Below the pieces are notes generated by a model. That model did no database searches and was not told where the DNA came from. It was given only the letters and a program-made list of their open reading frames with translations. The position numbers and the translations under genes were made by a program. Positions 690 through 45,417 of a stretch of DNA of 64,000 nt are shown piece by piece. Origin of the DNA: Candidatus Levyibacteriota bacterium (GTDB lineage Bacteria; Patescibacteriota; Microgenomatia; Levybacterales; UBA12049); contig JACQHJ010000003.1 in NCBI GenBank assembly GCA_016199085.1, positions 38,676 through 102,675 on the forward strand, given 5' to 3'. Within the stretch, counting starts at the first letter, position 1, and each line of letters starts with the position of its first letter.

Positions 690-2995
690 AGGAGAAACAT
701 TCGAAGGGTATTTAGCCTAATCTTAAAAGGCACACCGGAAGCAAAAAGTTCTGCAATATACTGTCTTTTTCTAATAACTCTTAAGCTGCTGTATGCAGCA
801 ATTACTGCAACTAAAAGCAGAAATAACATTTGTTCTCTGGTTTGTCCTGCAGTAACTTTATCAAAGTTTTTAGAACCTAAAACCTCCGGTGGGTTTTGAG
901 TATTTGTAGAAAGAGTTGCCAGAGTAGTTTTACCAAAGATCTTAAAATTACTTTGAGCTTGTCCTGAAACCATGTGACCATCTGGGCCAACGTTTCCCTC
1001 TGCGAGTGCTACTGCAAAATATTCGCCCGGGAGCGCATTCTTGGAAAGCACTAAGCCTGTTGAAAGCTTTACAGATCTTCCGCCTGGTATGTCACCAATT
1101 TCAAACAAACCTCCTCCCATATTGACTCCGTCTTTAACTAAGAATAGCTTTAGTTTTGTTCCATAAACCTTTCCAGTTCCAAAGTTTTTTATTTTTACAA
1201 AAAATGTTACAGTATCTCCCGGATACACATATTCTCCTACGTTATTTGCTTGCTCAACGGAAAGTAATCCTCCCTCTTCCTGCTTTTGATCACCTTCGTT
1301 ATTTTCACCATCATTTTTACTTGTTAATTGCTCAGTTGTTTGTTCTTCTTCACTCTCTTTATTCAAGGCATCAAACTCTGCTTTTCCCCCAATATCTCCG
1401 GTCCAATCACCAAAAATATTTAAAAAACCAAAAAAACCTACCGAGTTTATAAAATTGGCATTTACAAAATTAATAAGTGAAACAGCGCTGAATGCATTCC
1501 CTGTATTTATATTTCCGTTTCCATTAATAGTGTTTGACCCACTGTTTGCAAGAGAGGTAACGTTATTTTCAACATAGGCACTGTTATAGATGCTTAAATC
1601 TCCGACACACGTTGAGCACCCACCAGATCCAGCAGGTAGAAAACCTCCTAAGGAGAAGAACATTAGACTTGAACCTCCAAGCTGGGCTGCTAGTCCGTTC
1701 CAGCCTATAAAGTTTCCAATCCAATTTCCCAAAAGATTGATAAACAATCCATATATACTTGTGTTGACAAAATTGGCATTAATTAAATTGAGGTTATTGA
1801 CAATAGAAGCAGCATCTCCGCTAACAATACTTCCATTACCATTAATTGTGTTTTCCCCGCTGTTTGCAGCTGAGTCAACGTTATTTACAACAGTGGCGCT
1901 ATTTGTTGCAACCAAAGACATCCCGCAATCACTGCAAGAAGCAGGTGTAAAATCAGGCAAGATTATGTTGCCGTTAAGCTTTCCGAAAACATTTATGGAA
2001 ACAATATGGATTACAGAATTTACAACCGTAAAGTTAACTTTGTTTAAAAGAGAAACTATGGAATATGCATCACCGCTGTTAATGATTGCCTCAACGCCTG
2101 ATACTCCACCGTTTATCGTGTTTCCTCCTGTATTTGCATAGGAAACTACATTGTTGGAAACAAAAGCATAGTTTTGTAGATTTGTAAAAGAAACGTTTAT
2201 TATTTCATCATCAGGGTGTTGTTGAATCATTTGCGATGCAACTTGAAACGGATCAGAAAGGTTTAAGTTTCCGCTTTCATCCACAAAAATATTTATTGTT
2301 TGATAGACAACTTGGGAATTAACAGAGTTTGTGTTAACAGAATTGTCTACTACTGTTTCAGAAAGTGCATCCCCGCTGTCAATTTCTCCACCACCTGCAT
2401 TTTCTACAGGACAAGAGTTATTGTTGTCATCAACTAGAGGCGTTGCCGAAGGGGTTGCAATCTTATTCTCTCCAGTATTACTGTCTGAATTAATATCGTT
2501 TTCTACATCTCCTTCATTGGCAAGACTTATGGAGTTAGAATTTGAATTATCATTGTTATTACTATTCGAGTTTTCTGTTTGATTATCTGTACTTTCCAGT
2601 TCTGCAGACTCCGTAGCTTGTTCCTCTTGGGGTGTGGGATCAGGAGTTGGGGAAACTTCCTCAGTTGTTGACTGCTCGGTTGGTGATTGTTCATCTGTTG
2701 CATCTTGCGTAGAATCATCTGTTGAATCTGTATTTTCCTCTGGAACAGGAGTTGGATTAATAGTATTATCCCCTGTATCAGATGTTGTTTGTACATCATT
2801 TTCAACTGTACCATCGTTAGTTTCTGTTGTTGCAGAAGTTTCAGAAGTTGGTGTTTCTTCTGTTACAGTTGGCTGTGGGTCCGGTGGTGTTTCATCTGCA
2901 AATACGACAGCAGGTATAACGCTTTGATATAGCATCAAAAATACTATTAAAAGTATTGCCAAACATTTTTTAAATTTTTCTATTTTCCCTGTCAT
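686..2995 (-). CDS. Large secreted repeat-containing surface protein (769 aa). It has an N-terminal signal peptide, a T/S/E/D-rich low-complexity region, three or more N/S/G-rich repeats (consensus V.NNV.S.ANSG.NTINGNG...SG.A.S.V.L...VN.NF), a CSTCVG motif, a DUF11/CARDB-like beta domain and a C-terminal hydrophobic anchor followed by basic residues
   Basis: The translation shows a signal-peptide-like N-terminus, internal repeats visible by eye, and a C-terminal LFLLLVAVIAAY TM segment followed by RKRQ. A sortase gene lies nearby. Confidence 0.6.
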   Translation of the reverse strand: MTGKIEKFKKCLAILLIVFLMLYQSVIPAVVFADETPPDPQPTVTEETPTSETSATTETNDGTVENDVQTTSDTGDNTINPTPVPEENTDSTDDSTQDATDEQSPTEQSTTEEVSPTPDPTPQEEQATESAELESTDNQTENSNSNNNDNSNSNSISLANEGDVENDINSDSNTGENKIATPSATPLVDDNNNSCPVENAGGGEIDSGDALSETVVDNSVNTNSVNSQVVYQTINIFVDESGNLNLSDPFQVASQMIQQHPDDEIINVSFTNLQNYAFVSNNVVSYANTGGNTINGGVSGVEAIINSGDAYSIVSLLNKVNFTVVNSVIHIVSINVFGKLNGNIILPDFTPASCSDCGMSLVATNSATVVNNVDSAANSGENTINGNGSIVSGDAASIVNNLNLINANFVNTSIYGLFINLLGNWIGNFIGWNGLAAQLGGSSLMFFSLGGFLPAGSGGCSTCVGDLSIYNSAYVENNVTSLANSGSNTINGNGNINTGNAFSAVSLINFVNANFINSVGFFGFLNIFGDWTGDIGGKAEFDALNKESEEEQTTEQLTSKNDGENNEGDQKQEEGGLLSVEQANNVGEYVYPGDTVTFFVKIKNFGTGKVYGTKLKLFLVKDGVNMGGGLFEIGDIPGGRSVKLSTGLVLSKNALPGEYFAVALAEGNVGPDGHMVSGQAQSNFKIFGKTTLATLSTNTQNPPEVLGSKNFDKVTAGQTREQMLFLLLVAVIAAYSSLRVIRKRQYIAELFASGVPFKIRLNTLRMFLL

Positions 2996-3096
2996 ATTTT
3001 TTACCTTTCATTTTTCCTTTATTTTTATTTCCTTTCCTCTGTCCAGGGGGAGAGCCCTAAAGTTTGTTGCCCTCCCCAAGGACAAAAAGAAATACT

Positions 3097-3588
3097 TTAG
3101 TTGGGACCAACCTGGTTGTAGTTGACTATACTGTCAACGACTGACACAGAGCTTGCTACTCCAGTTTTTGTACCCTGAAGTAGAACTAAACCTCCAGCGT
3201 TAAGGTTCCCACCTGTGTTTGCATTGGTGTGAACATGGTTGTAAACAAATCCGACATTTCTCTGTTCAATGTCCCCATTTGAAACTCCCAAGTTTACGGC
3301 ACTACCCGCACATCCACAAGTTACTAAATTTGTATTTAGTTGTGTTGAAACTAGTGATGCAGATGATGCGCTTCCGCTATTGATTCCTTGAACACCCGCT
3401 GCGAGAGCGAAGTTAGCGTTTCTTCCGCTGTTTGCACTGGTGTGAACACTGTTTACCACACCTCCAAAGTTGGATTGTTCAATGTCTCCATTTCCAACTC
3501 CAACATTGACTGTTAAAGCTAAGGCAGGAACTGCAGATCCAAATAGTAAAGCTGCTGTTGCTCCTGCTACTGCTAATCTTTTAAACAT
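3097..3588 (-). CDS. Small secreted protein with two copies of the same ANSG-type repeat seen in the 769-aa protein
   Basis: Signal peptide MFKRLAVAGATAALLFGSAVPALA. The repeats VVNSVHTSANSGRN... and VYNHVHTNANTGGN... resemble those in ORF 686..2995. Confidence 0.55.
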   Translation of the reverse strand: MFKRLAVAGATAALLFGSAVPALALTVNVGVGNGDIEQSNFGGVVNSVHTSANSGRNANFALAAGVQGINSGSASSASLVSTQLNTNLVTCGCAGSAVNLGVSNGDIEQRNVGFVYNHVHTNANTGGNLNAGGLVLLQGTKTGVASSVSVVDSIVNYNQVGPN

Positions 3589-6330: not shown

Positions 6331-7479
6331 TTATAAACTAGCTTTGTCAACTGCTAATTTATTAACGTTTATTCCAACGGCTTGTTTCACATTTTTATAC
6401 CCATCTTTTTTTAACAAACCTATCAGTTCCGAGTTAATAAGTGCCGCAGCAGCCGGTCCTTCAAAAATTAATCCTGTAATAAATTGCACAAGAGATGCTC
6501 CCAGTTTTATTTTGTGATATGCGTCTTGCCCGTTAAATACTCCACCGCAGCCAATGATAATTAATTTATCTTTGTAGTTTTTATATGCAAGTTCAATAAG
6601 ACGATTTGAGTCTTCCCAGGTCGGCTTTCCACTGAAATTTCCCACAGGATATTTCGCAGTTTCATTTTTGTCCAAAGTTTTATTATTTCTGTTTTTCTGA
6701 AGGTTTCCAAAAATTACACCATCCATTTTGTTTTTGGAAATAACGTCAAGCAAAGACAGCGCTTCTTTGTCGTTTTTATCAATCGGCATTTTGACAAAAA
6801 TTGGTTTTTTAATATTTAAAGCTTTAATCTTTGTTAAAAGCTCGTCAAGTTTATCAGGATCATAAAAAGTAACCTTTGTATTTAGGTTTGGGCAACTGAT
6901 ATTTAATTCGTAATATTTTGTTTTTAAATCGAATTCTTCGGCTTTTTTAAATGCCGTAACAATATCTTCTACCGCGCTTTCCTGAGTAAACTTTCCCGTA
7001 TTTGTTTGCCCAATGCTAATACCGATTGGAATTTGGAAGTTATAATTTTTAAGCTTATTGCCTACTGCATCAATTCCGTTATTTTTAAATCCTTTGTTAA
7101 CCATTAAGGATTTTGATTTCAAAAGCCTCGCAAGCCTTGGTTTTGGGTTTCCTTCAAAGGCATGGTTTGTAATAGTTCCAACTGTTCCAAAACCAAAACC
7201 TATTGATGGAAGAATCTGCGTAAGAGAGGCGGTATAATCAAATCCTGCAGCAAGACCTATTGGATTTTCAAAAGTTATTCCTTTTATGTTTTGCGAAAGA
7301 ATCGGAGATTTAATATTAAAAATAAAAAAAGCTAGCTTTCTGGTAAGCAGGGTTTTCCCTAAAATCTCTCCATATCTTACTAAAAGATTATGGATTAATT
7401 CGCTGTTAAATAGAAAAATTACCTTAGTTAAAAGATGTTTATAAATATAGTTATAAAACCTAAGCCAGTATTTTTTCAT
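6331..7479 (-). CDS. pyrD: Dihydroorotate dehydrogenase, membrane-anchored quinone-dependent type (class 2)
   Basis: NPIGLAAGFD, FGFGTVGTIT...GNPKPRLARL and ELNISCPN motifs, plus an N-terminal hydrophobic anchor. Confidence 0.8.
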   Translation of the reverse strand: MKKYWLRFYNYIYKHLLTKVIFLFNSELIHNLLVRYGEILGKTLLTRKLAFFIFNIKSPILSQNIKGITFENPIGLAAGFDYTASLTQILPSIGFGFGTVGTITNHAFEGNPKPRLARLLKSKSLMVNKGFKNNGIDAVGNKLKNYNFQIPIGISIGQTNTGKFTQESAVEDIVTAFKKAEEFDLKTKYYELNISCPNLNTKVTFYDPDKLDELLTKIKALNIKKPIFVKMPIDKNDKEALSLLDVISKNKMDGVIFGNLQKNRNNKTLDKNETAKYPVGNFSGKPTWEDSNRLIELAYKNYKDKLIIIGCGGVFNGQDAYHKIKLGASLVQFITGLIFEGPAAAALINSELIGLLKKDGYKNVKQAVGINVNKLAVDKASL

Positions 7480-7890
7480 TTAAACTTTTGGGGCAGGCTC
7501 TTTCTTAAAATCCAGGGCGCAAGAATTTATACAATATCTAAGACCCGTTGTTTCCTTGGGACCATCATTGAATAAATGTCCCAAATGCGATCCGCAATTT
7601 TTACAAACTACCTCAGTCCTTTTCATACCATAGCTTTCGTCATCTTGTAAAAGAATATTTTCCCTGTTAACTGGATTATCAAAGCTTGGCCATCCTGTTC
7701 CTGAATCAAATTTTGTTTCCGAAGAAAAAAGAGACTGTCCACAAGCTGCACAAATATACATTCCGGTTTCATGGTTGTCGTAAAGGTTTCCACTAAAAGC
7801 AGGTTCAGTTCCTTTTTCTCTTAAGACATGGTAAGCTTTAGGCGTAAGCTTTTTCCTCCAGTCTTCTTCTGACATGATTTTGGGGTTCAT
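7480..7890 (-). CDS. msrB: Peptide-methionine (R)-S-oxide reductase MsrB
   Basis: CxxC...GWPSF...[21 protein letters not shown]...GLRYCINS, which is the SelR/MsrB signature. Confidence 0.9.
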
Positions 7891-8952: not shown

Positions 8953-9744
8953 CTATGATCCTGAAATAGCATATCTTGGATAATCAACTACATATACACC
9001 AAGTATTGCTCTTTCTCTGGCAGCATTTCCGAAAGGCAAAGTTAATGTTCTTGACTGTAAGGCACTTTTTCCATTATCTTTTGCAATTTGAGGTTGCATG
9101 GGATTAACTTGCACTTGGTCTTTATCATAAACGACAAGAGCAGGATGGATTAAAACTCTTTGTTCTGGATTAACCCTTGCTCTTGCATGAGAGGCTTTCC
9201 CGTACATTTCAGGAATAGACATTAAATTCTGGTCTGCAAGAGAGACACCGCTCCTTGTAACATCAACGACTGCTGGAGTTGGAGTGTCGGAAACCGTGGG
9301 AGAAGCAAGCCTCCAGACGGGTTTAACGTCATAAGATGGCCTGCCGTCTGATTCGGGTACTTCAATTCTTGGGCCAACAGAACAGGCAACACCCTGCAAT
9401 ACTATTTCTCTTCCTCTAAAATCTGGCTCGAGAGCTTTTAATAAGGGCGTCATTGCGGCAAACCTTGTTATCCTGTCCAGATCACGAGTTAAATTCGTCC
9501 CTTCACATGGACGACCCACTCGCAAAAAATATCTGTATCTTTCATCTGAGGGCATCTGGGCACCTACATATCTAACCCTTGAGCCCTGAATTGAAGCTAT
9601 AAATCTATCCGAAGGAGCTTGGAAATATCTTGCAAGAATTTCCCCATCAGAAACGACATGGGTATCCTTTCCTAAAAGCCTATTAAGCAAACTCTTTCTT
9701 GCAGGTCCTGTTGCTAGGCTAACACCATTTTCAGTCTTTGTCAT
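8953..9744 (-). CDS. Hypothetical protein; GC content visibly higher than its neighbours
   Basis: Long ORF of about 45% GC set in DNA of about 33% GC. I recognised no motifs. Confidence 0.4.
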   Translation of the reverse strand: MTKTENGVSLATGPARKSLLNRLLGKDTHVVSDGEILARYFQAPSDRFIASIQGSRVRYVGAQMPSDERYRYFLRVGRPCEGTNLTRDLDRITRFAAMTPLLKALEPDFRGREIVLQGVACSVGPRIEVPESDGRPSYDVKPVWRLASPTVSDTPTPAVVDVTRSGVSLADQNLMSIPEMYGKASHARARVNPEQRVLIHPALVVYDKDQVQVNPMQPQIAKDNGKSALQSRTLTLPFGNAARERAILGVYVVDYPRYAISGS

Positions 9745-9781
9745 ATCGGGTATTTTACATTATCCTATAGCCATTATCAAG

Positions 9782-10351
9782 CTAAAAGACGACTTTTAGC
9801 TTTGGCCACTTTTTAAGAGTCTTTTTTGTTTTCATTCTTTCTTTAAATACTTTCAAATCTTTTTTAAATTTAGGAGTTGGTCGCAAAATCAGATTTACCA
9901 AATCTTTTATTCCTATTGGCGTTGCTAAGATGAGTTTTCCATTCTTTATTCTTACGCCAATACAGGTTGCAGTCTCTACCCAATTTGATAATCCTTCCTC
10001 TGAGTTTTTATATGGTTTATCGTTATGCATCAAATGCATTCTTGCCTGATTGGTAACGCTCCAATTAATCTTTGGCATTTTTTTCTTTAGAACTTCTTGA
10101 TATCTTTCTTCAGCTTTGGTTGAAAAGGATTTTGCTTCAATCTTATCAAAATCTTTTTTATCAAAGTAGACTACATCTATATCGGGAAGTGGAGTTCTTT
10201 TCCTGTATCCATGCAGACTGTCCCAAACTTTTCCTCTTACAAAACCTGCTCCGACCCACCAATCAGATAAATTAAGCTTGCCAACGATTTTTAATACATC
10301 TATCATCCATTTATCTTTTTCTATAAGAGAGATTATGTCTTTTTTATTCAT
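9782..10351 (-). CDS. Nucleotidyltransferase family protein (DUF925/NTP_transf_6-like)
   Basis: WWVGAGFVRGKVWD...DIDVVYFD resembles the GG...D.D minimal nucleotidyltransferase fold. Confidence 0.45.
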   Translation of the reverse strand: MNKKDIISLIEKDKWMIDVLKIVGKLNLSDWWVGAGFVRGKVWDSLHGYRKRTPLPDIDVVYFDKKDFDKIEAKSFSTKAEERYQEVLKKKMPKINWSVTNQARMHLMHNDKPYKNSEEGLSNWVETATCIGVRIKNGKLILATPIGIKDLVNLILRPTPKFKKDLKVFKERMKTKKTLKKWPKLKVVF

Positions 10352-36465: not shown

Positions 36466-36500
36466 AGTTGTGCTGAGCATACCGCTCTCGACCCATTACA
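36466..36500. repeat. Intergenic repeat copy A (consensus about tTGtGCTGAGCATaCCGgTCTaGAACC), one of three
   Basis: Seen directly by aligning 36468-36500, 37168-37200 and 37706-37740. Confidence 0.5.
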
Positions 36501-36552
36501 TCATTATAGCGGTCGGGCTGAAGCTGAATAAGGCAATATCAGAATATTTAAT

Positions 36553-37165: not shown

Positions 37166-37200
37166 CACGTTTTTGTGCTGAGCATACCGGTCTAGAACCG
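37166..37200. repeat. Intergenic repeat copy B
   Basis: The sequence tgtgctgagcataccggtctagaacc is seen directly. It lies 30-60 bp upstream of the maf start. Confidence 0.5.
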
Positions 37201-37214
37201 TTTTGTCGTTATAA

Positions 37215-37664: not shown

Positions 37665-37705
37665 TTATTATTAAAACTGCAGACACGCTCATGATTGTGT
37701 TTGTT

Positions 37706-37765
37706 TTTGCTGAGCATCTCGGTTTAGAACCACCTTATCTTTATTGCTATTCTAGATTGCCTACT
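37706..37765. repeat. Intergenic repeat copy C, followed by an att-like TATTCTAG...CCTACT segment
   Basis: The sequence tttgctgagcatctcggtttagaacc...gctattctagattgcctact is seen directly. Confidence 0.5.
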
Positions 37766-38321
37766 CTTGTTTAACGCCTATTGTGCGTTGAGACTCTAAT
37801 TTATTGGCCGCTTCTAAAAAAGATGCTCTATCATTCAAGTCTATATCTTTACTCATTTCCTTAAAACTTTCTAATTGTTCTTTTGTTTGAGCTATTAAGA
37901 TGTCTTTATGTTTTAGATAAAACCACAGACGAAATGCAGTCATGAAGCCTGTAATCTCAATGGTTAACTCTTGATACATCCTAATATCGTCCCAGATAAC
38001 AAATTCGCTTGATGCTGGATTAAATCTCAGTAATTTATCAGGATCACTATTTGCATGTTTAAAAAAATTATAGGGTTCATTAAGTTTTTTTAGCACAAAG
38101 GCCTGTTTCTCTGGTTTTATGTATCCATCCATCTGGGATTTAAAAGATTTTATGCCTGAGGCTTTTCCTATTCCAGATAGTATTTCTTCGGCAGCGCAAG
38201 CAGAAAGGTGAATTATTACAAAATCTCCATAATTAAAAAACAATTTAATAGCATGCTCTAATTCTCTTTTTGCAACATCTAGCTTTGAGACGTTTATGAT
38301 TTTTTTAGTTTCTTCGTCCAT
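37761..38321 (-). CDS. Hypothetical protein
   Basis: ORF only. Confidence 0.4.
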   Translation of the reverse strand: MDEETKKIINVSKLDVAKRELEHAIKLFFNYGDFVIIHLSACAAEEILSGIGKASGIKSFKSQMDGYIKPEKQAFVLKKLNEPYNFFKHANSDPDKLLRFNPASSEFVIWDDIRMYQELTIEITGFMTAFRLWFYLKHKDILIAQTKEQLESFKEMSKDIDLNDRASFLEAANKLESQRTIGVKQE

Positions 38322-38333
38322 ATACTATTCAAT

Positions 38334-38422
38334 CTTGCTGGCTACTTACGAAAAATGTCGAACTTCGTTTCTTAAATAGTCGCTTCGCTCCTACTATTTT
38401 AGAGCTCGGCCTCGCCTCGCTC
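38334..38422. repeat. Inverted repeat X (89 bp), a perfect reverse complement of 43622..43710; begins with the 7-bp core CTTGCTG
   Basis: Direct base-by-base comparison of the two segments. Confidence 0.9.
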
Positions 38423-38439
38423 TTTTGTATTTTTTGCCA

Positions 38440-38900
38440 GAACGAACAAACCTTTTCGCGCGATTTTTATTATACCAAATAACCCGCCCGCCCGACGGAA
38501 AGGAGCGGCGACCCCGCCTTTATGCGAGAGGACTTCCTAGGGGAAGTCTCGCCAGTATCTTTACTTTTTTAAAACTCTTTACAGTCTCTTACTCGCCCCG
38601 CTTCGGCGGGGCTAAATTTCTTCTAACTTAAAACCGCCTGCAGTCAGCGGGGTACTTCCGCTTTTCGCCCCCGCCGATGTTATTCTACCCCCTATTTAGT
38701 TTACGATCTTTGGGATAAACCATATTGGCTCGCCCCGCAAGGTTTCAAGTAAAAGAAGTTTCCGCGGGGCTCGCTTTGGTCGGACTGCCTATACCAAGTC
38801 GGTGGTAAATAAAGTTTTCCTAACGGCAGTTCTCCTTTTAAGGGCGTAATCCTCACGGTGCGGGGGCGGCGGACGCTGCCAATCATTTTTGTCTGAAAAA
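38440..38900 (+). ncRNA. Candidate structured non-coding RNA of unknown class. It is a GC-rich island of about 460 nt in AT-rich DNA with multiple perfect hairpins, including a UUCG tetraloop (GCCCCGC-UUCG-GCGGGGC)
   Basis: There is no plausible ORF; the six-frame ORFs are R-rich artefacts. Hairpins include gacttcc-tagg-ggaagtc, gccccgc-ttcg-gcggggc, and gccccgc...gcggggc. Confidence 0.3.
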
Positions 38901-38988
38901 TTTGACGATAACAGACATTAATAGCTTACAAACTTACGTGAGATAACAGCCTCAAATATACTACATTCAGCCTATTTAATAGTATATC

Positions 38989-39017
38989 TTGACAATAATA
39001 GTAAGATATGTTATAAT
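38989..39017 (+). promoter_or_regulatory. Perfect sigma70-type promoter TTGACA-17 bp-TATAAT, 7 nt upstream of the ATG of the first operon gene (a near-leaderless transcript)
   Basis: TTGACA at 38989-38994, a 17-nt spacer, TATAAT at 39012-39017, and an ATG at 39025. Confidence 0.6.
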
Positions 39018-39024
39018 ACAAGCC

Positions 39025-39243
39025 ATGAAAGAAGATAGAGCACAAAGATTTAAGAGAATCGCCACATATAGAACAAACGAGGTCTTGGATAAGCTCAGGC
39101 TCTTAGGGAATCTCTCCAACAAAGCTAATTATGAATATACAGAGGACGAGGTAAACAAAATATTTTCAGCTATAGAGATTCAGTTAAGAATTGCTAAGGC
39201 TAAATTTTCTTCTTCAAAGAAAAAGAAAGAGTTTTCGCTATGA
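39025..39243 (+). CDS. Small hypothetical protein (72 aa), first gene of the four-gene operon
   Basis: The ORF from the ATG at 39025 overlaps the next gene by 4 nt (ATGA). Confidence 0.45.
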   Translation: MKEDRAQRFKRIATYRTNEVLDKLRLLGNLSNKANYEYTEDEVNKIFSAIEIQLRIAKAKFSSSKKKKEFSL

Positions 39244-39845
39244 GTAATGAAGAATTAACAAATGTTGATATCGTCTTGTACTCGCTTTATTTGCTTGGTG
39301 GTAGTAGAAGAAAGATTTTTACCGAAGATATCGCCAAAAAGTGTTTTGAATTAGCACAAGATCGTTTTTCTTGGAGAAGATATCCAGAATACCCAGATAT
39401 TGAGCCTGCAAGAAAATCTTTAATGGAAGCAAGAAACCAGAAAGACTTAATAAGCGGCAGGGCAGGAGAAGTTAAGGGTACAAAACCATCTGATGGATGG
39501 ATTTTCTCTCCTGAAGGTGTGTTCTGGATAGAAAAAAATAAATCACGTATTGAAAAAGCGCTAGGCAAAAAACAAAAACCTATCAAGAGAACAGAACTTT
39601 CCAAAAAAATTGCCGAGCTTGAATCTTCAAGCGCATTCTTAGAATTTTTGAAAGAAAAGACGTGCAACAATATCAAAGCTTATGAATTCACTGATTTTCT
39701 AAACGTTAGCCTTGATACCCCATCATCAGTAATCAAGAGTAGAATTCAAACTGTTAAGGCTCTTGCAGCATCAGAAAAAAGAGAAAAACTTCTTACATTT
39801 ATTGCGCTTTGCGAAAAAAATTTTTCCAAATTAATTAATAATTAA
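39240..39845 (+). CDS. Hypothetical protein (201 aa), second gene of the operon
   Basis: Translationally coupled to both flanking genes. Confidence 0.5.
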   Translation: MSNEELTNVDIVLYSLYLLGGSRRKIFTEDIAKKCFELAQDRFSWRRYPEYPDIEPARKSLMEARNQKDLISGRAGEVKGTKPSDGWIFSPEGVFWIEKNKSRIEKALGKKQKPIKRTELSKKIAELESSSAFLEFLKEKTCNNIKAYEFTDFLNVSLDTPSSVIKSRIQTVKALAASEKREKLLTFIALCEKNFSKLINN

Positions 39846-39846
39846 C

Positions 39847-42096
39847 ATGAATCCAAATTCTAATATAATTTTTGGCCAACCACAAAAATTTGATATATCT
39901 GATAGATACTTTCTTCAAACAGCTGAGAGCGCAATGAAAGGAGATGTAATAAGGGGGTTAGTTGAATTAATTACCAATGCTGATGACAGTTACGAAGAAG
40001 TTGAGTCAAAAGGATTAACTAGTAGCGGGAAAATACTCATTGAAATAATAAGAAAAAAGCAAGGCAAAAATAGTTTAATTAAGGTCGTTGATAAAGCTGA
40101 AGGAATGAAGCTGGAAGAAATGGTTATTAAGTTAAAAAGGGTTGGGGGGATGACAAGCCATTTTATTGAAAGCAAAGGATTAAAAACGAGAGGATTAATG
40201 GGTAGAGGTAGCAAAGAATGTGTGGTTTTTGGTCCTTTAACTTTCAAATCAATAAAAGACAATATTTATTCTGAAGTTGTTTTAAAAAAACCTGCAATCT
40301 TTATTCCGCAAATCGAAAGACCTGTAACAGAAGTCGACAGAGTAAAGCTAGATATTAAAGGGAATGGAACAGTTGTGGAATTAAAAGTTGAACCACATTT
40401 TCAAATTCCGAGCCATAACTCTTTAGTAGAGAATTTACCAAAATATTACAGTCTGAGGGATATTACATCCAATCCCAAAAGAATAATTGAGTTAAGTGAC
40501 GGTAAAAGATCTGATAGGCTAGTTTACAATCCTAAAAAAGGCACTGTTGTACTAGATGAAGTAATTAATGTTATGGAATATCCTGGCGCGCAGGCTCATC
40601 TCATTCTAATAAAAACGCCTGAATCAATTGAGGTTGAAAGTAATTCTCCTTTTTGGGAAGGTGGAATATTAATTCAAAGCGGGCATGCAGTTCACGGCGT
40701 AACGGGATTCACTAGAGATATCGAGAATAATCCTTATTTTGTACATTATTTTGGAAGATTGGTTTGTACTTATATTGATATTCTTGCAATAGAATATGAA
40801 GAATATGAAAAAAATAATCAAGCGCATACCGCGTTAAACCCATCGAGAATTATCGAACCATTAAGAAAGGAAGGATTATTCTCTAACCATCCCTTTACTA
40901 AGATTTTGTATAGAGAAGCTTCACGGAGAATAAAAAATCTTTTGAAAAAAGACGAGGAACTCTCTACCTCAATGATTAAAGAAATAGAAAATAAAAAAAC
41001 AAAAGATAGACTCAAAAGGCTGGCTGACGCAGTTAGCAGGTTTATTAAAGAAAGGACTGAAGATTTGGAAATAGAAGATGATAACTATCTTTCTGGTTCT
41101 GACATTCCCGTTGGTGGGATGATTGTGATACCTGGTGGACTTAGAGTTCCAATTGGTGAAGAAAAAAGGTTTTATGTTTATGTTAAACCAAAAATACAAC
41201 AGGATAGATTTGTTACGCTTTTTACTCAGTCCAGCGCAATAGCCCTAAGCTCTAAAAAGGAAGAGCTAATTGAAAGGAATGATGGAACTTTTTACGCCCA
41301 GTTCTCTGTAAAAGGAGTTGATTATGTCAATGACGCTATAGTTAAGGTAAATTGGTCGAATATAGAAAATAATGTTCCTGTTTCAGTAATTAAAAAGGAA
41401 GAAGATCATCCATTTATTACTGACTTCTCTTTTGAAAAAAATAAATATAATTTACGTGAAGGTAAACAGAAGGATATTTATTTATTGGCTAAATGGCCTG
41501 ATTTTGTCCACGGATGGGCGGAATGTACTATTGAGACAAACAAAAATGAATTTTTAACAGTTTTGGGTAATAAAACTAGATTAAAATATAAACGATTTAA
41601 CGATGGGACACAGATGGCCATAGGAAAAGTCAAAATATATGGGGTAAAAACGGGAGGCCCAACCATAATTAAAACGTCTATAAATAATAAAACAGTGCAA
41701 ACAGAAATAAATGTTCTTCCAAAATTGGAGTTAGGACATAATATCGAGATCAAATTGGTTGATGAAGAAGCGGGAGCACAGAGAGCAGTTTGGGATGGGG
41801 ACATTTTAAAAATAAATACGAGACATAAAACTATTCATAGATATTCCGGTCCACCACCTGACTATTTAGGACAAGATTCAATTCATTTTCATTTGTTGTT
41901 GGCAGAATTGATAGCAGATAATGTAGCTAGGCGAGTTTTAGAATTAAATGCTGAAAAAAATATACATAAATATCAAGATATGGATATATATGGTTTTTAT
42001 GATATACACAGAAAGTATGTAAATGATTTCTTAGAAGTTGCCCATAACATTCAAATTCCCGATAATGAACTTGTAAATATTGTCCTTAATTCTTAG
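39847..42096 (+). CDS. Large protein (749 aa) with a putative N-terminal GHKL-type (Bergerat-fold, MORC/Hsp90/MutL-like) ATPase domain, then a coiled coil and a beta-rich C-terminal region
   Basis: N-box-like ELITNADDS, G1-box-like VVDKAEGMKLEEM (a degenerate DxGxG), and G2-like TRGLMGRGSK. I recognised nothing in the remainder. Confidence 0.5.
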   Translation: MNPNSNIIFGQPQKFDISDRYFLQTAESAMKGDVIRGLVELITNADDSYEEVESKGLTSSGKILIEIIRKKQGKNSLIKVVDKAEGMKLEEMVIKLKRVGGMTSHFIESKGLKTRGLMGRGSKECVVFGPLTFKSIKDNIYSEVVLKKPAIFIPQIERPVTEVDRVKLDIKGNGTVVELKVEPHFQIPSHNSLVENLPKYYSLRDITSNPKRIIELSDGKRSDRLVYNPKKGTVVLDEVINVMEYPGAQAHLILIKTPESIEVESNSPFWEGGILIQSGHAVHGVTGFTRDIENNPYFVHYFGRLVCTYIDILAIEYEEYEKNNQAHTALNPSRIIEPLRKEGLFSNHPFTKILYREASRRIKNLLKKDEELSTSMIKEIENKKTKDRLKRLADAVSRFIKERTEDLEIEDDNYLSGSDIPVGGMIVIPGGLRVPIGEEKRFYVYVKPKIQQDRFVTLFTQSSAIALSSKKEELIERNDGTFYAQFSVKGVDYVNDAIVKVNWSNIENNVPVSVIKKEEDHPFITDFSFEKNKYNLREGKQKDIYLLAKWPDFVHGWAECTIETNKNEFLTVLGNKTRLKYKRFNDGTQMAIGKVKIYGVKTGGPTIIKTSINNKTVQTEINVLPKLELGHNIEIKLVDEEAGAQRAVWDGDILKINTRHKTIHRYSGPPPDYLGQDSIHFHLLLAELIADNVARRVLELNAEKNIHKYQDMDIYGFYDIHRKYVNDFLEVAHNIQIPDNELVNIVLNS

Positions 42097-42138
42097 CTGT
42101 GAAGAGAGAGTAACGAGGATATAATCCAGTTAGAATTT

Positions 42139-43425
42139 ATGCCAAAGAAATCATACAGAATAGGTGAATTACCTCAAGAGCTTAAAACAAAAAGTGTTTT
42201 TTATTACGTTAACGAAAAGCAAGGTTTAAAAGTAAAATCAAAAGAAGTATTCAAAAATGGAGAAAAAGTTGTTCACTATCCATTTAAAAGGGATGGCACT
42301 CCTAAATATAGAAATATAAGAAAAATTACATATGAAAATATGCCAGAGAATTTACCAAGAGGATTTTATAAAGAATGGACTAAAGGTTATGGTTTTACTC
42401 GTGTATATAATCCCTTAATTTATCGACTTGATGATGCATTAAAAATTCAAGAAGTTATAGTTAGCAAAAACATAATCACAAAATTTGAAAATGGAAAACT
42501 ATATTTGAACTCTGATAAATTAGACTCATCTTATCCCAAAATAGATTTGCTTTTAAAAAAACACAATGTTGAAATTGATAATTTAGCTAATGATATTTTG
42601 TCGAAGTATTTCCCTCAAACTTTCAAGAATAAATCTCAGAAATACATAAAAGGAAGCTTAGCGCAATTTATAGATAAAAATGTAACTCAAATCTCTGATT
42701 TATCAGAAGCAGACACGCAATCCTTATTTGATCTTGCCTCTAGAATTTCAAAAGATGATTTTCTAGAAAGTAAAACCAGTGTATTAAAGACTAAAGAAAA
42801 AATTGAAGAAGTTTATATTGAAGAAGTAATTGAAGAATTTGAAAAATTATTATCTAGAAAGAATTTGACTAAAAATTTAGAAGAAAGATGGCAGAAGTTT
42901 TTTACGCAATATAATTGGATCTTTTCTCAATTATTTTCATTTCCAGTTTTAATTTTTAAAGATAAGGCTTATGTGGGAGGGAAAGGTATAGAAAATGCAA
43001 ATGGGAAAATCTCTGATTTTATCTACAAAAATAAATTAACAAACAATATTGCTTTTATAGAAATTAAGACTCATAAAACTCCAATACTTATTGATAAACC
43101 ATATAGAGGAAATGATGTTTATTCTGTAAGTAAAGACATGAGCGGAGCTGTTAATCAGGTATTAGATCAAAGAGATAATTTTCAGAAAGAATTTTATTCT
43201 CTTAAATCTAAAAGTAAAAATAAGAATTTTGAATCTTACAATTCTAAGTGTATCATTATCACTGGTAGCTTAAGTAAGCTCTCGGAAGAAGAAAAGAAAT
43301 CCTTTGATTTAATGAGAAGCAATAGTAGAGATGTAGACATAATCACATTTGACGAAGTGTTAGAGAAAATTAAAGGACTAGAATCTTTACTTTTTGGTTC
43401 TAAGCAAAAATCTACTGCAAATTAA
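42139..43425 (+). CDS. Protein (428 aa) with a C-terminal DUF4263/Shedu-like PD-(D/E)xK nuclease domain
   Basis: DFIYKNK...IAFIEIKTHK (D...ExK), QVLDQ...Y, and C-terminal IIITGS...DIITFDEV resembling the DUF4263 C-terminus. Confidence 0.45.
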   Translation: MPKKSYRIGELPQELKTKSVFYYVNEKQGLKVKSKEVFKNGEKVVHYPFKRDGTPKYRNIRKITYENMPENLPRGFYKEWTKGYGFTRVYNPLIYRLDDALKIQEVIVSKNIITKFENGKLYLNSDKLDSSYPKIDLLLKKHNVEIDNLANDILSKYFPQTFKNKSQKYIKGSLAQFIDKNVTQISDLSEADTQSLFDLASRISKDDFLESKTSVLKTKEKIEEVYIEEVIEEFEKLLSRKNLTKNLEERWQKFFTQYNWIFSQLFSFPVLIFKDKAYVGGKGIENANGKISDFIYKNKLTNNIAFIEIKTHKTPILIDKPYRGNDVYSVSKDMSGAVNQVLDQRDNFQKEFYSLKSKSKNKNFESYNSKCIIITGSLSKLSEEEKKSFDLMRSNSRDVDIITFDEVLEKIKGLESLLFGSKQKSTAN

Positions 43426-43500
43426 TACACCTTGCGTTATTGTAAAAGTTTTGTTTTTTGCTATAGTAAAACGGTAGTCAAACTTTTCTTTTCGGTTTTT

Positions 43501-43553
43501 TAATGGCCGCATTGGACAGATCCGAAAAGGGTTTGACTACACCAGTGCGGCCA
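43501..43553. other. 13-bp-stem hairpin (aatggccgcattgg...ccagtgcggccatt) immediately downstream of the operon; candidate terminator or recombination site
   Basis: Inverted repeat with one mismatch and a 24-nt loop, seen directly. Confidence 0.3.
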
Positions 43554-43621
43554 TTTGAGTACTTTAAAATTTTTGCGTTTTTCTCCCAAAGACGATTTGG
43601 GAACGAGTCGACAGTTTTTGA

Positions 43622-43710
43622 GCGAGGCGAGGCCGAGCTCTAAAATAGTAGGAGCGAAGCGACTATTTAAGAAACGAAGTTCGACATTTTTCGTAAGTAG
43701 CCAGCAAGCT
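43622..43710. repeat. Inverted repeat X' (reverse complement of 38334..38422)
   Basis: Direct comparison. Confidence 0.9.
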
Positions 43711-43809
43711 AGAATAATTAAACCTACGAGGACCTAAACCCTCCGCCGGAAAACTTTCAGAAAGAACGGCAAATCCGGCCTTTTTGAAATCAGCAGACAG
43801 TCGTCGAAA
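43704..43809. repeat. Inverted repeat Y' (reverse complement of 45245..45349; 93 bp perfect plus an extension with 2 mismatches). It abuts and overlaps X' at the shared core CAGCAAG
   Basis: Direct comparison. Confidence 0.9.
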
Positions 43810-43849
43810 GAAAAAGAAGAGAAAAACGCAAAAATTTAAGAATAAGAAC

Positions 43850-45406
43850 ATGATTAAATACATAGCATACTGTAGGAAATCAACAGATGAACCGGACAGA
43901 CAAATTTTGTCTATTGAAGCTCAAGTTGCCGAACTTGAGGAATTCGCCGCAAAAGAAAATTTGAAAATTGTTTTATTTATTACCGAAAGTAAAACCGCCA
44001 AAGAGCCGGGAAGAGAAAAATTTGCTCAAGTTTTAGAAATGATAGAAAAAGGAGAAGCAAGCGGCATAATCTCCTGGCATCCTGATAGATTAGCCAGAAA
44101 TTCTGTTGATGGCGGAAAGATTATCTATTTACTTGATACCGGAAAACTTTTGGATTTAAAATTTCCCTCTTTTTGGTTTGAGAATACTCCACAAGGAAAA
44201 TTTATGTTATCGATCGCCTTTGGGCAGAGTAAGTATTATGTCGATAATCTTTCCGAAAATGTTAAAAGAGGAAACAGGCAAAAATTGAGACGCGGTGAAT
44301 GGCCTAATCAAGCGCCTTTTGGTTATTTAAATATAAATAAGAAAATCGAAGTTGATAAAAAACGAGCAAGGTTTGTTAAAAAGGCATTTCAACTTTACTC
44401 AACCGGTGCTTATGGTTATGCCGATATCCGCAAATTTTTCACTCAAAACAAAATTTTCAATAAATCAGGCCATAAACTTCACTTAGATAAAATAAAAAAG
44501 ATTTTAACAGACCCTTTTTATTATGGCCTGATGAAGTTTTGCGGCGAATTATACGAAGGAAGCCACCTGCCCCTAATTTCTAAGAAACTTTTTGATAAAT
44601 GCCAAGAAATTGTTAAGCTAAAGAGCAGGAAAGTTAAAAATAATAAACATCTTTTTAATTTCTTGGGAATGATTAAATGCGGCGAGTGTGGCTCTATGAT
44701 TACTGCCGAAAAACATACAAAGATTTACAAAAGAACTAATAGAAGGGTTGAATATGTTTATTACCGCTGCTCCAAAAAGAAAGGTAAATGCTTGCAAAGA
44801 TATATTAGTAAAGAAGAAATTGAGGAACAGATAAGAAATATCCTTTTGCAAGCTTCTTTAACCCAATTCGCCGCCAAAAAGTTTCTTGAATGGGCAGAAA
44901 AAGACATAGCCAAAGAAAAACAACAATCATCAAGCGTTACTTTGGATTACAAAGACCAAATTAAAGATACTGATGAAAAACTAGAGCGGTTACTTGATGG
45001 TTATTTAGATAAGGTTATTTCTCCCGAAGATTACCAAAAGAAAAAGAACGAACTTGTTGATACAAAATCGGTTATTAACTCCAAAATTAAGGATATTTCT
45101 ACAAACGGAGTTGAATGGCTCGAACCTTTTCAAGAATTCGTAAATAACGCACTGCAGTGCGGAAAAATCGCACGGGCAAAAAATACAAACGAAGAATTGG
45201 CATTCTTCGCAAAAACTGTCGGCTCGAACTTCTCTTTACTCAATCGGCGACTGTCGGCTGATTTCAAAAAGGCCGGATTTGCCGTTCTTTCTGAAAGTTT
45301 TCCGGCGGAGGGTTTAGGTCCTCGTAGGTTTAATTATTCTAGCTTGCTGTCGGACTTGGATTCGAACCAAGATTACCAGATTCAGAGTCTGGATGCCTAC
45401 CATTAG
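43850..45406 (+). CDS. Large serine recombinase (resolvase catalytic domain, recombinase domain, zinc ribbon and coiled coil)
   Basis: YCRKSTDEPDRQ...SIEAQ (catalytic Ser context), SWHPDRLARN, recombinase-domain GEWPNQAPFGYLN, and zinc ribbon CGECGS...YYRCSKKKGKC. The start is set at the ATG at 43850, because the upstream part of ORF 43784 lies in the inverted repeat. The last 50 codons are encoded by repeat Y and the antisense of tRNA-Gln. Confidence 0.9.
   Translation: MIKYIAYCRKSTDEPDRQILSIEAQVAELEEFAAKENLKIVLFITESKTAKEPGREKFAQVLEMIEKGEASGIISWHPDRLARNSVDGGKIIYLLDTGKLLDLKFPSFWFENTPQGKFMLSIAFGQSKYYVDNLSENVKRGNRQKLRRGEWPNQAPFGYLNINKKIEVDKKRARFVKKAFQLYSTGAYGYADIRKFFTQNKIFNKSGHKLHLDKIKKILTDPFYYGLMKFCGELYEGSHLPLISKKLFDKCQEIVKLKSRKVKNNKHLFNFLGMIKCGECGSMITAEKHTKIYKRTNRRVEYVYYRCSKKKGKCLQRYISKEEIEEQIRNILLQASLTQFAAKKFLEWAEKDIAKEKQQSSSVTLDYKDQIKDTDEKLERLLDGYLDKVISPEDYQKKKNELVDTKSVINSKIKDISTNGVEWLEPFQEFVNNALQCGKIARAKNTNEELAFFAKTVGSNFSLLNRRLSADFKKAGFAVLSESFPAEGLGPRRFNYSSLLSDLDSNQDYQIQSLDAYH
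45245..45349. repeat. Inverted repeat Y, ending in the core CTTGCTG, which overlaps the 3' end of tRNA-Gln
   Basis: Direct comparison with 43704..43809. Confidence 0.9.
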
Positions 45407-45417
45407 CAGATCCGACA
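45347..45417 (-). tRNA. tRNA-Gln (anticodon CUG), 71 nt, CCA not encoded
   Basis: Manual cloverleaf: acceptor UGUCGGA/UCCGACA (U1:A72), D-stem UGCU/GGCA with loop AAUGGUA, anticodon stem CCAGA/UCUGG with loop CUCUGAA, T-stem CUUGG/CCAAG with loop UUCGAAU, and discriminator G. Confidence 0.8.

Follow-up and report, generated by a model that had tools for sequence, protein, structure and literature searches.

A GC-rich block at positions 38480–38885 was analysed in a 64-kb stretch of the genome of a Candidatus Levyibacteriota bacterium (contig JACQHJ010000003.1; "the window" below means this whole stretch). The block was non-coding and formed part of the backbone of a mobile element, which carries a large serine recombinase (LSR) gene and lies at a tRNA-Gln gene. 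Base pairing appears to be under selection in at least two of its stems. A second copy was found at positions 262–657 of locus L097 (related loci are given L numbers here). L097 belongs to assembly GCA_964624955.1 and is the closest relative, with a recombinase protein 92% identical to that of the window. What the block does is a more tentative matter. The favoured reading, held at less than even odds, is a cis-acting role of its RNA, as a structured boundary or untranslated-region (UTR) module on the upstream edge of the cargo bay. The block is best filed as a hairpin-rich, non-coding, lineage-specific module, an orphan structured element of a mobile-element backbone with two known copies.

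A non-coding block in the element backbone

GC content was calculated along the window with 400-nucleotide (nt) segments (mean 0.356, standard deviation 0.043). The maximum was 0.532 at 38483–38882 (z = 4.0). With 200-nt segments over 38400–38899 the values were 0.495–0.515, and those of the flanks were about 0.30–0.35. The strong GC enrichment claimed by the first-pass annotation, which was made from the sequence alone, was therefore confirmed as the highest GC in 64 kb. Its placement of the region between repeat X (38326–38422) and the operon promoter (38989–39017) was also correct. The extent that it gave, 38440–38900, does contain a GC-rich stretch, but the conserved block is limited to 38480–38885.

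Only two open reading frames (ORFs) were found in the block, of 68 amino acids (aa) on the plus strand and 61 aa on the minus strand, and neither was retained in the L097 copy. Indels of 1, 2, 3 and 19 nt separate the two copies, and every frame is broken. The concatenated six-frame translation had no match among 5.8 billion predicted proteins. A hidden protein gene or pseudogene was ruled out by the unconserved ORFs, the frame-breaking indels and the empty six-frame search, in agreement with the earlier statement that no credible ORF is present.

Known RNA families were searched for in the same region. At the gathering thresholds of Rfam 15, tRNA-Gln was the only family that passed in the whole window. 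A permissive scan of 38200–39100 gave a top score of 17.9 bits (cut-off 45) and a lowest E of 0.38, which is chance level, and a permissive scan of L097 100–760 gave a single match with E = 5.2. ARAGORN detected tRNA-Gln only in the window, and no tmRNA. The first-pass annotation had seen no fit to RNase P, tmRNA or SRP RNA, and the scans agree with it, no family being matched by either copy. Tandem or TIGR/CRISPR-like repeats were not found in the block, and its motif was not found dispersed elsewhere in the 64-kb window.

The element, apparently integrated by the LSR at the 3′ end of tRNA-Gln, is about 7 kb long (38326–45349). Its shared backbone consists of 38326–38885 and 43466–45349, and the 4.6-kb cargo bay between them (38886–43465) holds a cassette of 72-, 201- and 749-aa genes and the Shedu gene SduA. 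The bay of L097 holds genes for 387 aa and 883 aa. Since L097 retains the block beside entirely different cargo, the block belongs to the backbone and not to the cargo, and the earlier proposal that it is a component of the element was right. One cargo gene of L097 runs leftward and has its end directly at the block, and the cargo there includes a GC-rich gene end beside it.

The distribution of the block was narrow. It was absent from elements with 77–80% identical recombinases. Searches with nhmmer and a covariance model of the 3′ half over the fetched recombinase loci and the closest cassette loci returned the two known copies only. Phage and plasmid collections gave no match, and IMG/VR gave nothing or chance matches. 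In L098, L099, L100, L103 and L125, the X arm is followed by CTATTTTTTGCGCGCGCGATTTT and then by one GC hairpin before the cargo starts. The relatives thus hold a single hairpin at the same place, and the 400-nt block looks like an elaboration of a single-hairpin role. In L095 the equivalent position (1160–1440) is taken by another GC-rich stretch, which precedes a 205-aa gene and contains three or four palindromes of the CCACAAATTTGTGG type, resembling operator sites.

Base pairing, folding and strand signals

The three hairpins named in the first-pass annotation were all located (hairpins A, B and C, Table 1). Hairpins B and C have CTCGCCCCGC in common. The window was compared with L097 over 38336–38882 (L097 120–650), with 78% identity. 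The 18 base pairs of hairpins A and C had been named in that annotation, from the window alone. Seven substitutions fell on them in L097 and none broke a pair: there were three double compensations and one wobble (P about 1e-4 to 6e-4 in neutral simulation). In hairpin A, GAC...GUC is replaced by AGC...GCU, so that adjacent pairs change from G-C to A-U and from A-U to G-C; one pair of the outer GCGA/UCGC stem becomes G·U on the plus strand, and the loop UAGG becomes UUGG. In hairpin C, A-U takes the place of the closing G-C pair, and the loop is hypervariable in length and sequence.

Similar changes were found in hairpin D, where a G·U of the window is G-C in L097 and an inner U-A pair becomes C-G, while nearly all of the 23-nt loop block is replaced. 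The loops of hairpins C and D are the most variable blocks between the copies. Hairpin B is missing from L097 as a clean, precise 19-nt indel, and it is thus an optional module. Of the three named hairpins, A and C are kept by compensatory changes, and the UUCG hairpin B is not conserved. The terminal hairpin is retained in L097 (GCCGCC) without its U-run, and the homology with L097 stops just past it. The predicted long-range helix is invariant in both copies, so it gives no covariation evidence either way. Unpaired blocks of 17–29 nt are conserved between the copies. Transitions and transversions between them numbered 47 and 46, and after about 20% divergence GC is still about 0.5 in both (the genomes have 33–36% GC).

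For the consensus fold of the two copies, the energy was −99 kcal/mol and the structure conservation index (SCI) 0.77; column shuffles that preserve conservation gave −58 ± 5 kcal/mol and 0.52 ± 0.04. Against dinucleotide shuffles, the folding z of the whole stretch was −1.05 on the plus strand and −2.0 on the minus strand, and that of the 3′ half was −0.8 to −2.2 in both copies. Both strands folded about equally. The covariation check proposed earlier favoured the stems of A and C at the P values given above; over the whole fold, compensated pairs were no more numerous than in shuffles.

Signals of the transcribed strand conflicted. In the helices with better support, namely the outer stem of A, D, the extension of C and the terminal hairpin, one-sided changes give G·U on the plus strand and A·C on the minus strand. 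The presence of G·U on one strand only in several helices points to selection on a single strand. A competing helix (38647–38654 with 38670–38677) gives the opposite strand signal. The minus strand has 29% G and 27% A, and composition and folding z both favour it. Wobbles thus indicate the plus strand, and composition and z-scores the minus strand. UNCG tetraloops at the equivalent position in relatives were considered as a strand marker and rejected, because a systematic scan gave UUC/UCC triloops.

In scans of the window and L097, no promoter or terminator was kept on either strand in both copies. Hairpin-plus-U-run terminators were called in the window, two on the plus strand (38595–38612 and 38865–38880) and weaker ones on the minus strand. 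An X-arm hairpin with a T6 run, plausible by eye as an intrinsic terminator, was not called by the scan and is at most a putative one. Past the distal X arm, towards the cargo, a conserved motif precedes a putative outward-facing promoter (P_out, Table 1), and the block follows directly. The TGnTATAAT of P_out is kept in L097 (TGTTATAAT) and L095 (TGGTATAAT). P_out would transcribe the X arm, the att core and the 186-aa gene.

Table 1. Features of the block and of the surrounding element (window coordinates; a dot marks features given without a strand)
Feature	Position	Strand	Details
GC-rich structured non-coding domain (the block)	38480–38885	.	GC maximum; L097 262–657 78% identical; no ORF, protein or Rfam match
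Hairpin A	38524–38552	.	GCGA (38524–38527), GAG bulge, GACUUCC (38531–38537), loop UAGG, GGAAGUC (38542–38548), UCGC (38549–38552)
Hairpin B	38595–38612	+	GCCCCGC (38595–38601), loop UUCG, GCGGGGC (38606–38612); cUUCGg tetraloop on plus strand
Long-range pairing strand, GCCCCCGCC	38667–38675	.	Predicted pairing with 38860–38868; 9-mers 100% complementary; helix 8 of consensus fold
Hairpin C	38732–38770	.	GCCCCGC (38732–38738), 25-nt loop, GCGGGGC (38764–38770)
Hairpin D	38782–38832	.	GGACUGCC ... GGCAGUUC, inner 3-bp stem
Terminal hairpin	38865–38880	+	GGCGGC-GGAC-GCUGCC, then AAUCAUUUUU; terminator-like call on plus strand
P_out, putative outward-facing extended −10 promoter	38469–38477	−	TGGTATAAT; two-hexamer scan made no call
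Repeat X, distal arm	38326–38422	.	97 nt; 98% complementary to 43620–43716; att core CTTGCTG at 38334–38340
Cargo operon promoter	38989–39017	+	TTGACA-17-TATAAT; 12/12 matches, upstream TG
Cassette genes, 72, 201 and 749 aa	39025–39243, 39240–39845, 39847–42096		Own promoter
Backbone hairpin at other bay edge	43505–43552	+	GGCCGCAUUGG...CCAGUGCGGCC with T-rich tail, just past cargo
Internal attP-like site	43620–43820	+	X arm, core CAGCAAG (43702–43708), Y arm
LSR gene	43850–45406	+	518-aa homologues match end to end; last 60 nt antisense to tRNA-Gln
tRNA-Gln(CUG), integration target	45346–45417	−

Possible roles of the block

The cis-acting reading, in which the RNA of the block forms a structured boundary or UTR module where the cargo bay starts, is given a probability of about 0.38. 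The stacked stable GC stems of the block would stop or pause transcripts that cross the bay edge from either side, or protect their 3′ ends. The block would be flanked by divergent promoters, P_out, reading across the att arm and on into the flanking gene, and the cargo's own promoter. Excision to the attP state would let the recombinase ORF run on the plus strand to an end in the X arm, some 100 nt before the block. Transcription and its strand are inferred, as is the boundary function, to which the position of the block, the simpler hairpin in relatives, the gain or loss of a hairpin module and a compensated, terminator-like hairpin at the opposite edge of the bay all point. The about equal folding of both strands fits a barrier that works in either orientation.

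Intrinsic terminators and clusters of the repetitive extragenic palindromic or bacterial interspersed mosaic element type (REP/BIME), which block read-through and protect mRNA 3′ ends, likewise place GC stems between transcription units. The gain or loss of hairpin B as a module, the folding of both strands and the two window stems with U-runs are points of likeness to them. The block differs in that its U-runs are not conserved in L097, its motif is not dispersed in the 64 kb, and it has long unpaired blocks and a long-range helix.

Several results weigh against the boundary reading. No conserved promoter puts the block in a transcript in the integrated state, and in L097 the scan called no hairpin-plus-U-run terminator, hairpin B being deleted there. 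The folding energy was not clearly better than that of dinucleotide shuffles, with single-sequence z of just −0.8 to −2.2. Four to five compensated pairs were counted in the whole fold, no more than the 3.6 ± 2 of column-shuffled alignments; pair-count controls have little power with two sequences, and a shuffle control reached the observed value in 30 of 500 trials. With two known copies, covariation lacks statistical depth. The identity of the block (78–84%) is close to that of third codon positions of the recombinase gene (76%). Finally, a mere barrier could be simpler than 400 nt that include conserved unpaired blocks.

The first-pass annotation had also suggested a structured leader, but the block is not a leader of the cargo operon. 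The operon promoter lies downstream of the block, and the segment that contains this promoter and the three cassette genes (38944–42125) is 90% identical in the Logan contigs L095 and L096, where the block is absent. Of 94 loci with genes homologous to that of the 749-aa protein, not one contained the block. A role as leader or component of the defence operon was rejected on these three grounds.

An autonomous, trans-acting structured RNA gene of an undescribed class, perhaps with its RNA as a regulator or cofactor in the expression or directionality of the recombinase, is rather unlikely. Such an RNA might be expressed mainly once excision places the block downstream of the recombinase gene. 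Long GC-rich intergenic regions of AT-rich genomes are enriched for structured RNA genes, on which searches of such regions (GC-IGR searches) are based (PMC6429828, PMC8632094, PMC11109978), and the block fits this rationale. Its compensated stems, the conserved unpaired blocks, the predicted long-range closing helix and a stable end hairpin exactly where the L097 homology stops are also consistent with an RNA gene, as is the backbone in which no gene like a recombination directionality factor (RDF) was evident. In the window, the 3′ end of the minus strand and the recombinase 5′ UTR gave a predicted duplex of −42.6 kcal/mol (null −27.7 ± 3.6). The duplex was weak in L097, however, which speaks against antisense pairing with the recombinase 5′ UTR. 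The trans-acting RNA is further opposed by the conflicting strand signals, by transcription signals conserved on neither strand, by conservation near the neutral rate and by the relatives with 77–80% identical recombinases that manage without the block.

It is unlikely that the block is a functionless, decaying relic of GC-richer foreign DNA (past cargo or an earlier UTR, for example) inherited from a common ancestor. The identity near that of third codon positions, the weak folding z, the near-equal numbers of transitions and transversions, the GC-rich gene end beside the L097 block and the restriction of the block to the two closest elements would all suit decay. Decay does not suit the stems chosen a priori, whose seven substitutions left no pair broken, nor the clustering of substitutions in loops. 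The GC of about 0.5 that persists in both copies and an SCI well above the shuffle null also oppose it.

Still more doubtful is a function at the DNA level, in which the block would provide accessory or architectural sites for the recombinase, single-stranded DNA hairpins or a homology arm for cargo exchange. The block lies about 60 nt from the att X arm, at the exact boundary of the cargo difference. Watson–Crick compensations are strand-symmetric, both strands fold, and transcription signals are not conserved. Hairpin A, a perfect 18-bp palindrome, has changed symmetrically, as might a site that co-evolves with a dimer bound to it, and the equivalent position of L095 has repeated operator-like palindromes. 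The G·U pairs that one-sided changes produce on one strand only speak against a DNA-level function, as do the stems, which are all different, unlike repeated protein-binding sites. LSRs are known to need only att sites of about 40–50 bp, and a homology arm needs no GC-richness.

A more ambitious idea, which we regard as improbable, is a new class of structured RNA that works with the LSR. It would report or control the element's state, for instance as an RNA directionality factor or by regulating the recombinase mRNA. After excision, the recombinase ORF, which crosses the att core, would stop just ahead of the block, in the X arm and on the same strand, and the RNA would therefore arise only from the excised or rearranged form. 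A backbone without a protein RDF would fit an RNA directionality factor.

A guide RNA had been raised in the first-pass annotation as well, as part of a guide or scaffold role. The 8-mers TTATTCTA and GTCGGACT in the block match both flanks of the tRNA-side core in the window. L097 has both without change, yet its flanks read TCTTCAAA and CCGAGCTT. Since the 8-mers stay constant though the att flanks differ, the block does not encode the target. A bridge or guide RNA for the att site was ruled out by this result, and by a recombinase that is of the serine type and not DEDD. Pfam and PADLOC scans of the neighbouring genes detected no reverse transcriptase, TnpB/IscB or DEDD transposase. A retron, a TnpB-IscB omega RNA and a type III toxin–antitoxin RNA were rejected, as no such neighbour genes and no tandem repeat were present.

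A divergent member of a known RNA family (RNase P, tmRNA, SRP, group I/II intron, OLE, ROOL, GOLLD, HEARO, raiA, retron msr-msd, bridge or omega RNA) or a short protein gene would suit the size and GC-richness that the block has in common with several large bacterial RNAs, but is essentially refuted, within the sensitivity of the Rfam covariance models, by the lack of any Rfam 15 family even at E = 0.1 in either copy, by ARAGORN, which called tRNA-Gln only, and by the absence of an adjacent reverse transcriptase, TnpB/IscB or DEDD transposase, of a tandem repeat and of a conserved ORF or protein match.

The recombinase element, its relatives and significance

To the right of the block, the 72-, 201- and 749-aa genes, SduA and the LSR gene are followed by tRNA-Gln on the opposite strand. 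The LSR has Resolvase (PF00239), Recombinase (PF07508) and Zn_ribbon_recom (PF13408) domains, all above cut-offs. In six of the six recombinase loci scanned, the recombinase gene overlaps an antisense tRNA-Gln. The core CAGCAAG occurs at three sites: at the tRNA 3′ end between arms T and Y (45343–45349), inverted between X and Y (43702–43708), and between X and Z (38334–38340), where the site adjoins the start of the 186-aa gene. This pattern would be expected of recombination between attB (T and Z arms) and attP (X and Y arms) into attL and attR, with an extra internal attP-like site; neither an empty attB site nor a circle junction was retrieved. The X and T arms carry TCGAAC at unequal distances from the core, which in our reading may reflect P-type and B-type half-sites.

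As a result of the three-site layout, 97-nt inverted repeats flank the cargo bay and 119-nt inverted repeats flank the recombinase gene. The bracketing repeats may delimit invertible segments, or belong to an element with two attP sites. The same layout, with repeat X and the internal attP-like site, was found in most of the fetched related recombinase loci; L124 had no such repeats. Repeat copies were 90–100% identical within a locus and more diverged between loci. L103 has three X-arm copies (6993–7106, 7589–7690 and 9698–9806), two direct and one inverted, an arrangement that would fit two successive cargo compartments.

The att core lies within the recombinase ORF, of which about the last 20 codons are antisense to tRNA-Gln (45343–45406) when the element is integrated. 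Over the attP junction the ORF remains in frame and ends in the X arm (38341–38379), where repeat X holds an alternative in-frame end, YEKCRTSFLK and a stop in the window. The end peptide Y(E/K)KCRTS(F/M), with its stop further on, is conserved in four loci (window, L097, L100 and L103). Owing to this difference between the junctions, the enzyme would have one C-terminus when excised and another when integrated.

The locus type recurs in genomes of the candidate phyla radiation (CPR): window 38326–45417, L097, L098, L099, L100, L103, L123 and L125. The variable cargo bays of these loci contain defence-type genes (Shedu, HNH, Fic, AAA_21/SMC-like and others). Names attached to homologues were Curtissbacteria, Gottesmanbacteria, Woesebacteria, Daviesbacteria and Patescibacteria, which puts the organism among the Microgenomates of the CPR. 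The literature search found no paper that describes such a recombinase locus type in these bacteria, and none that links their serine recombinases to tRNA-Gln or structured RNA.

The operon promoter lies within the 38944–42125 segment common to L095 and L096, so it is part of the cargo and not of the backbone. Neighbours of the cassette differ in these contigs, with DUF4145 in place of Shedu. No Pfam, PADLOC or PDB match was obtained for the three-gene cassette; a few homologues of the 749-aa protein have a GHKL ATPase domain (PF13589). The cassette is a candidate uncharacterised defence system and occurs in CPR, Chloroflexota and other phyla. At the other edge of the bay, the backbone hairpin at 43505–43552 shows two double compensations relative to L097, and its U·G wobbles work on the plus strand only. 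This hairpin is probably a terminator that the backbone supplies for cargo transcripts.

Other repeats were found outside the element. A 41-nt repeat has three copies (36468–36508, 37173–37213 and 37705–37745), located after the Maf, 149-aa and 186-aa genes. Its reverse complement resembles a tRNA 3′ half (GGTTCTAGACC, T-arm) followed by CAGCACAA, like the att core of L097. The copies may be relic or secondary att sites from successive integrations at tRNA-Gln. Direct-repeat families of 43 nt and 26 nt, spaced 213–1085 nt, occur at 1397–3460.

The prevailing view is that LSRs require nothing beyond the protein and short DNA sites, and they serve widely as tools of genome engineering. To our knowledge, no structured RNA is associated with LSR elements. 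Integrases of the phiC31 and Bxb1 type, the Ccr recombinases of SCCmec and TnpX/TndX have the same Resolvase, Recombinase and zinc-ribbon domains, and the hybrid sites with a 7-nt core are also alike. The present element differs from theirs in its extra, inverted internal attP-like site, in the 97–119-nt inverted repeats that bracket the recombinase gene and the bay, and in a recombinase ORF that crosses the att core. The bridge RNA or seekRNA of IS110/IS1111 elements is likewise a structured non-coding sequence at the end of a recombinase element, beside the recombination site. The recombinase here is a serine and not a DEDD enzyme, however, the block is twice as long, and the target is not encoded in it.

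ROOL and GOLLD RNAs are carried by mobile elements beside tRNA genes, as the block is. OLE, ROOL, GOLLD and raiA RNAs are also several hundred nt long, with GC far above the genome, many stems and no coding capacity (PMC6429828, PMC8632094, PMC11109978). In contrast to them, the block matches no covariance model, is known from two copies and not hundreds, and has much weaker folding and covariation statistics.

Should the block prove to be a functional RNA, it would be among the very few structured RNAs described from CPR bacteria and the first tied to an LSR element. The more modest reading still defines a compact, modular vehicle, which combines a recombinase at tRNA-Gln with long inverted repeats of the att type, in two pairs, and with a bay that is bounded by structured elements and carries different anti-phage systems in closely related elements. 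The surrounding element may hold more interest than the block itself, and a vehicle of this kind helps to account for the movement of defence genes in such reduced genomes.

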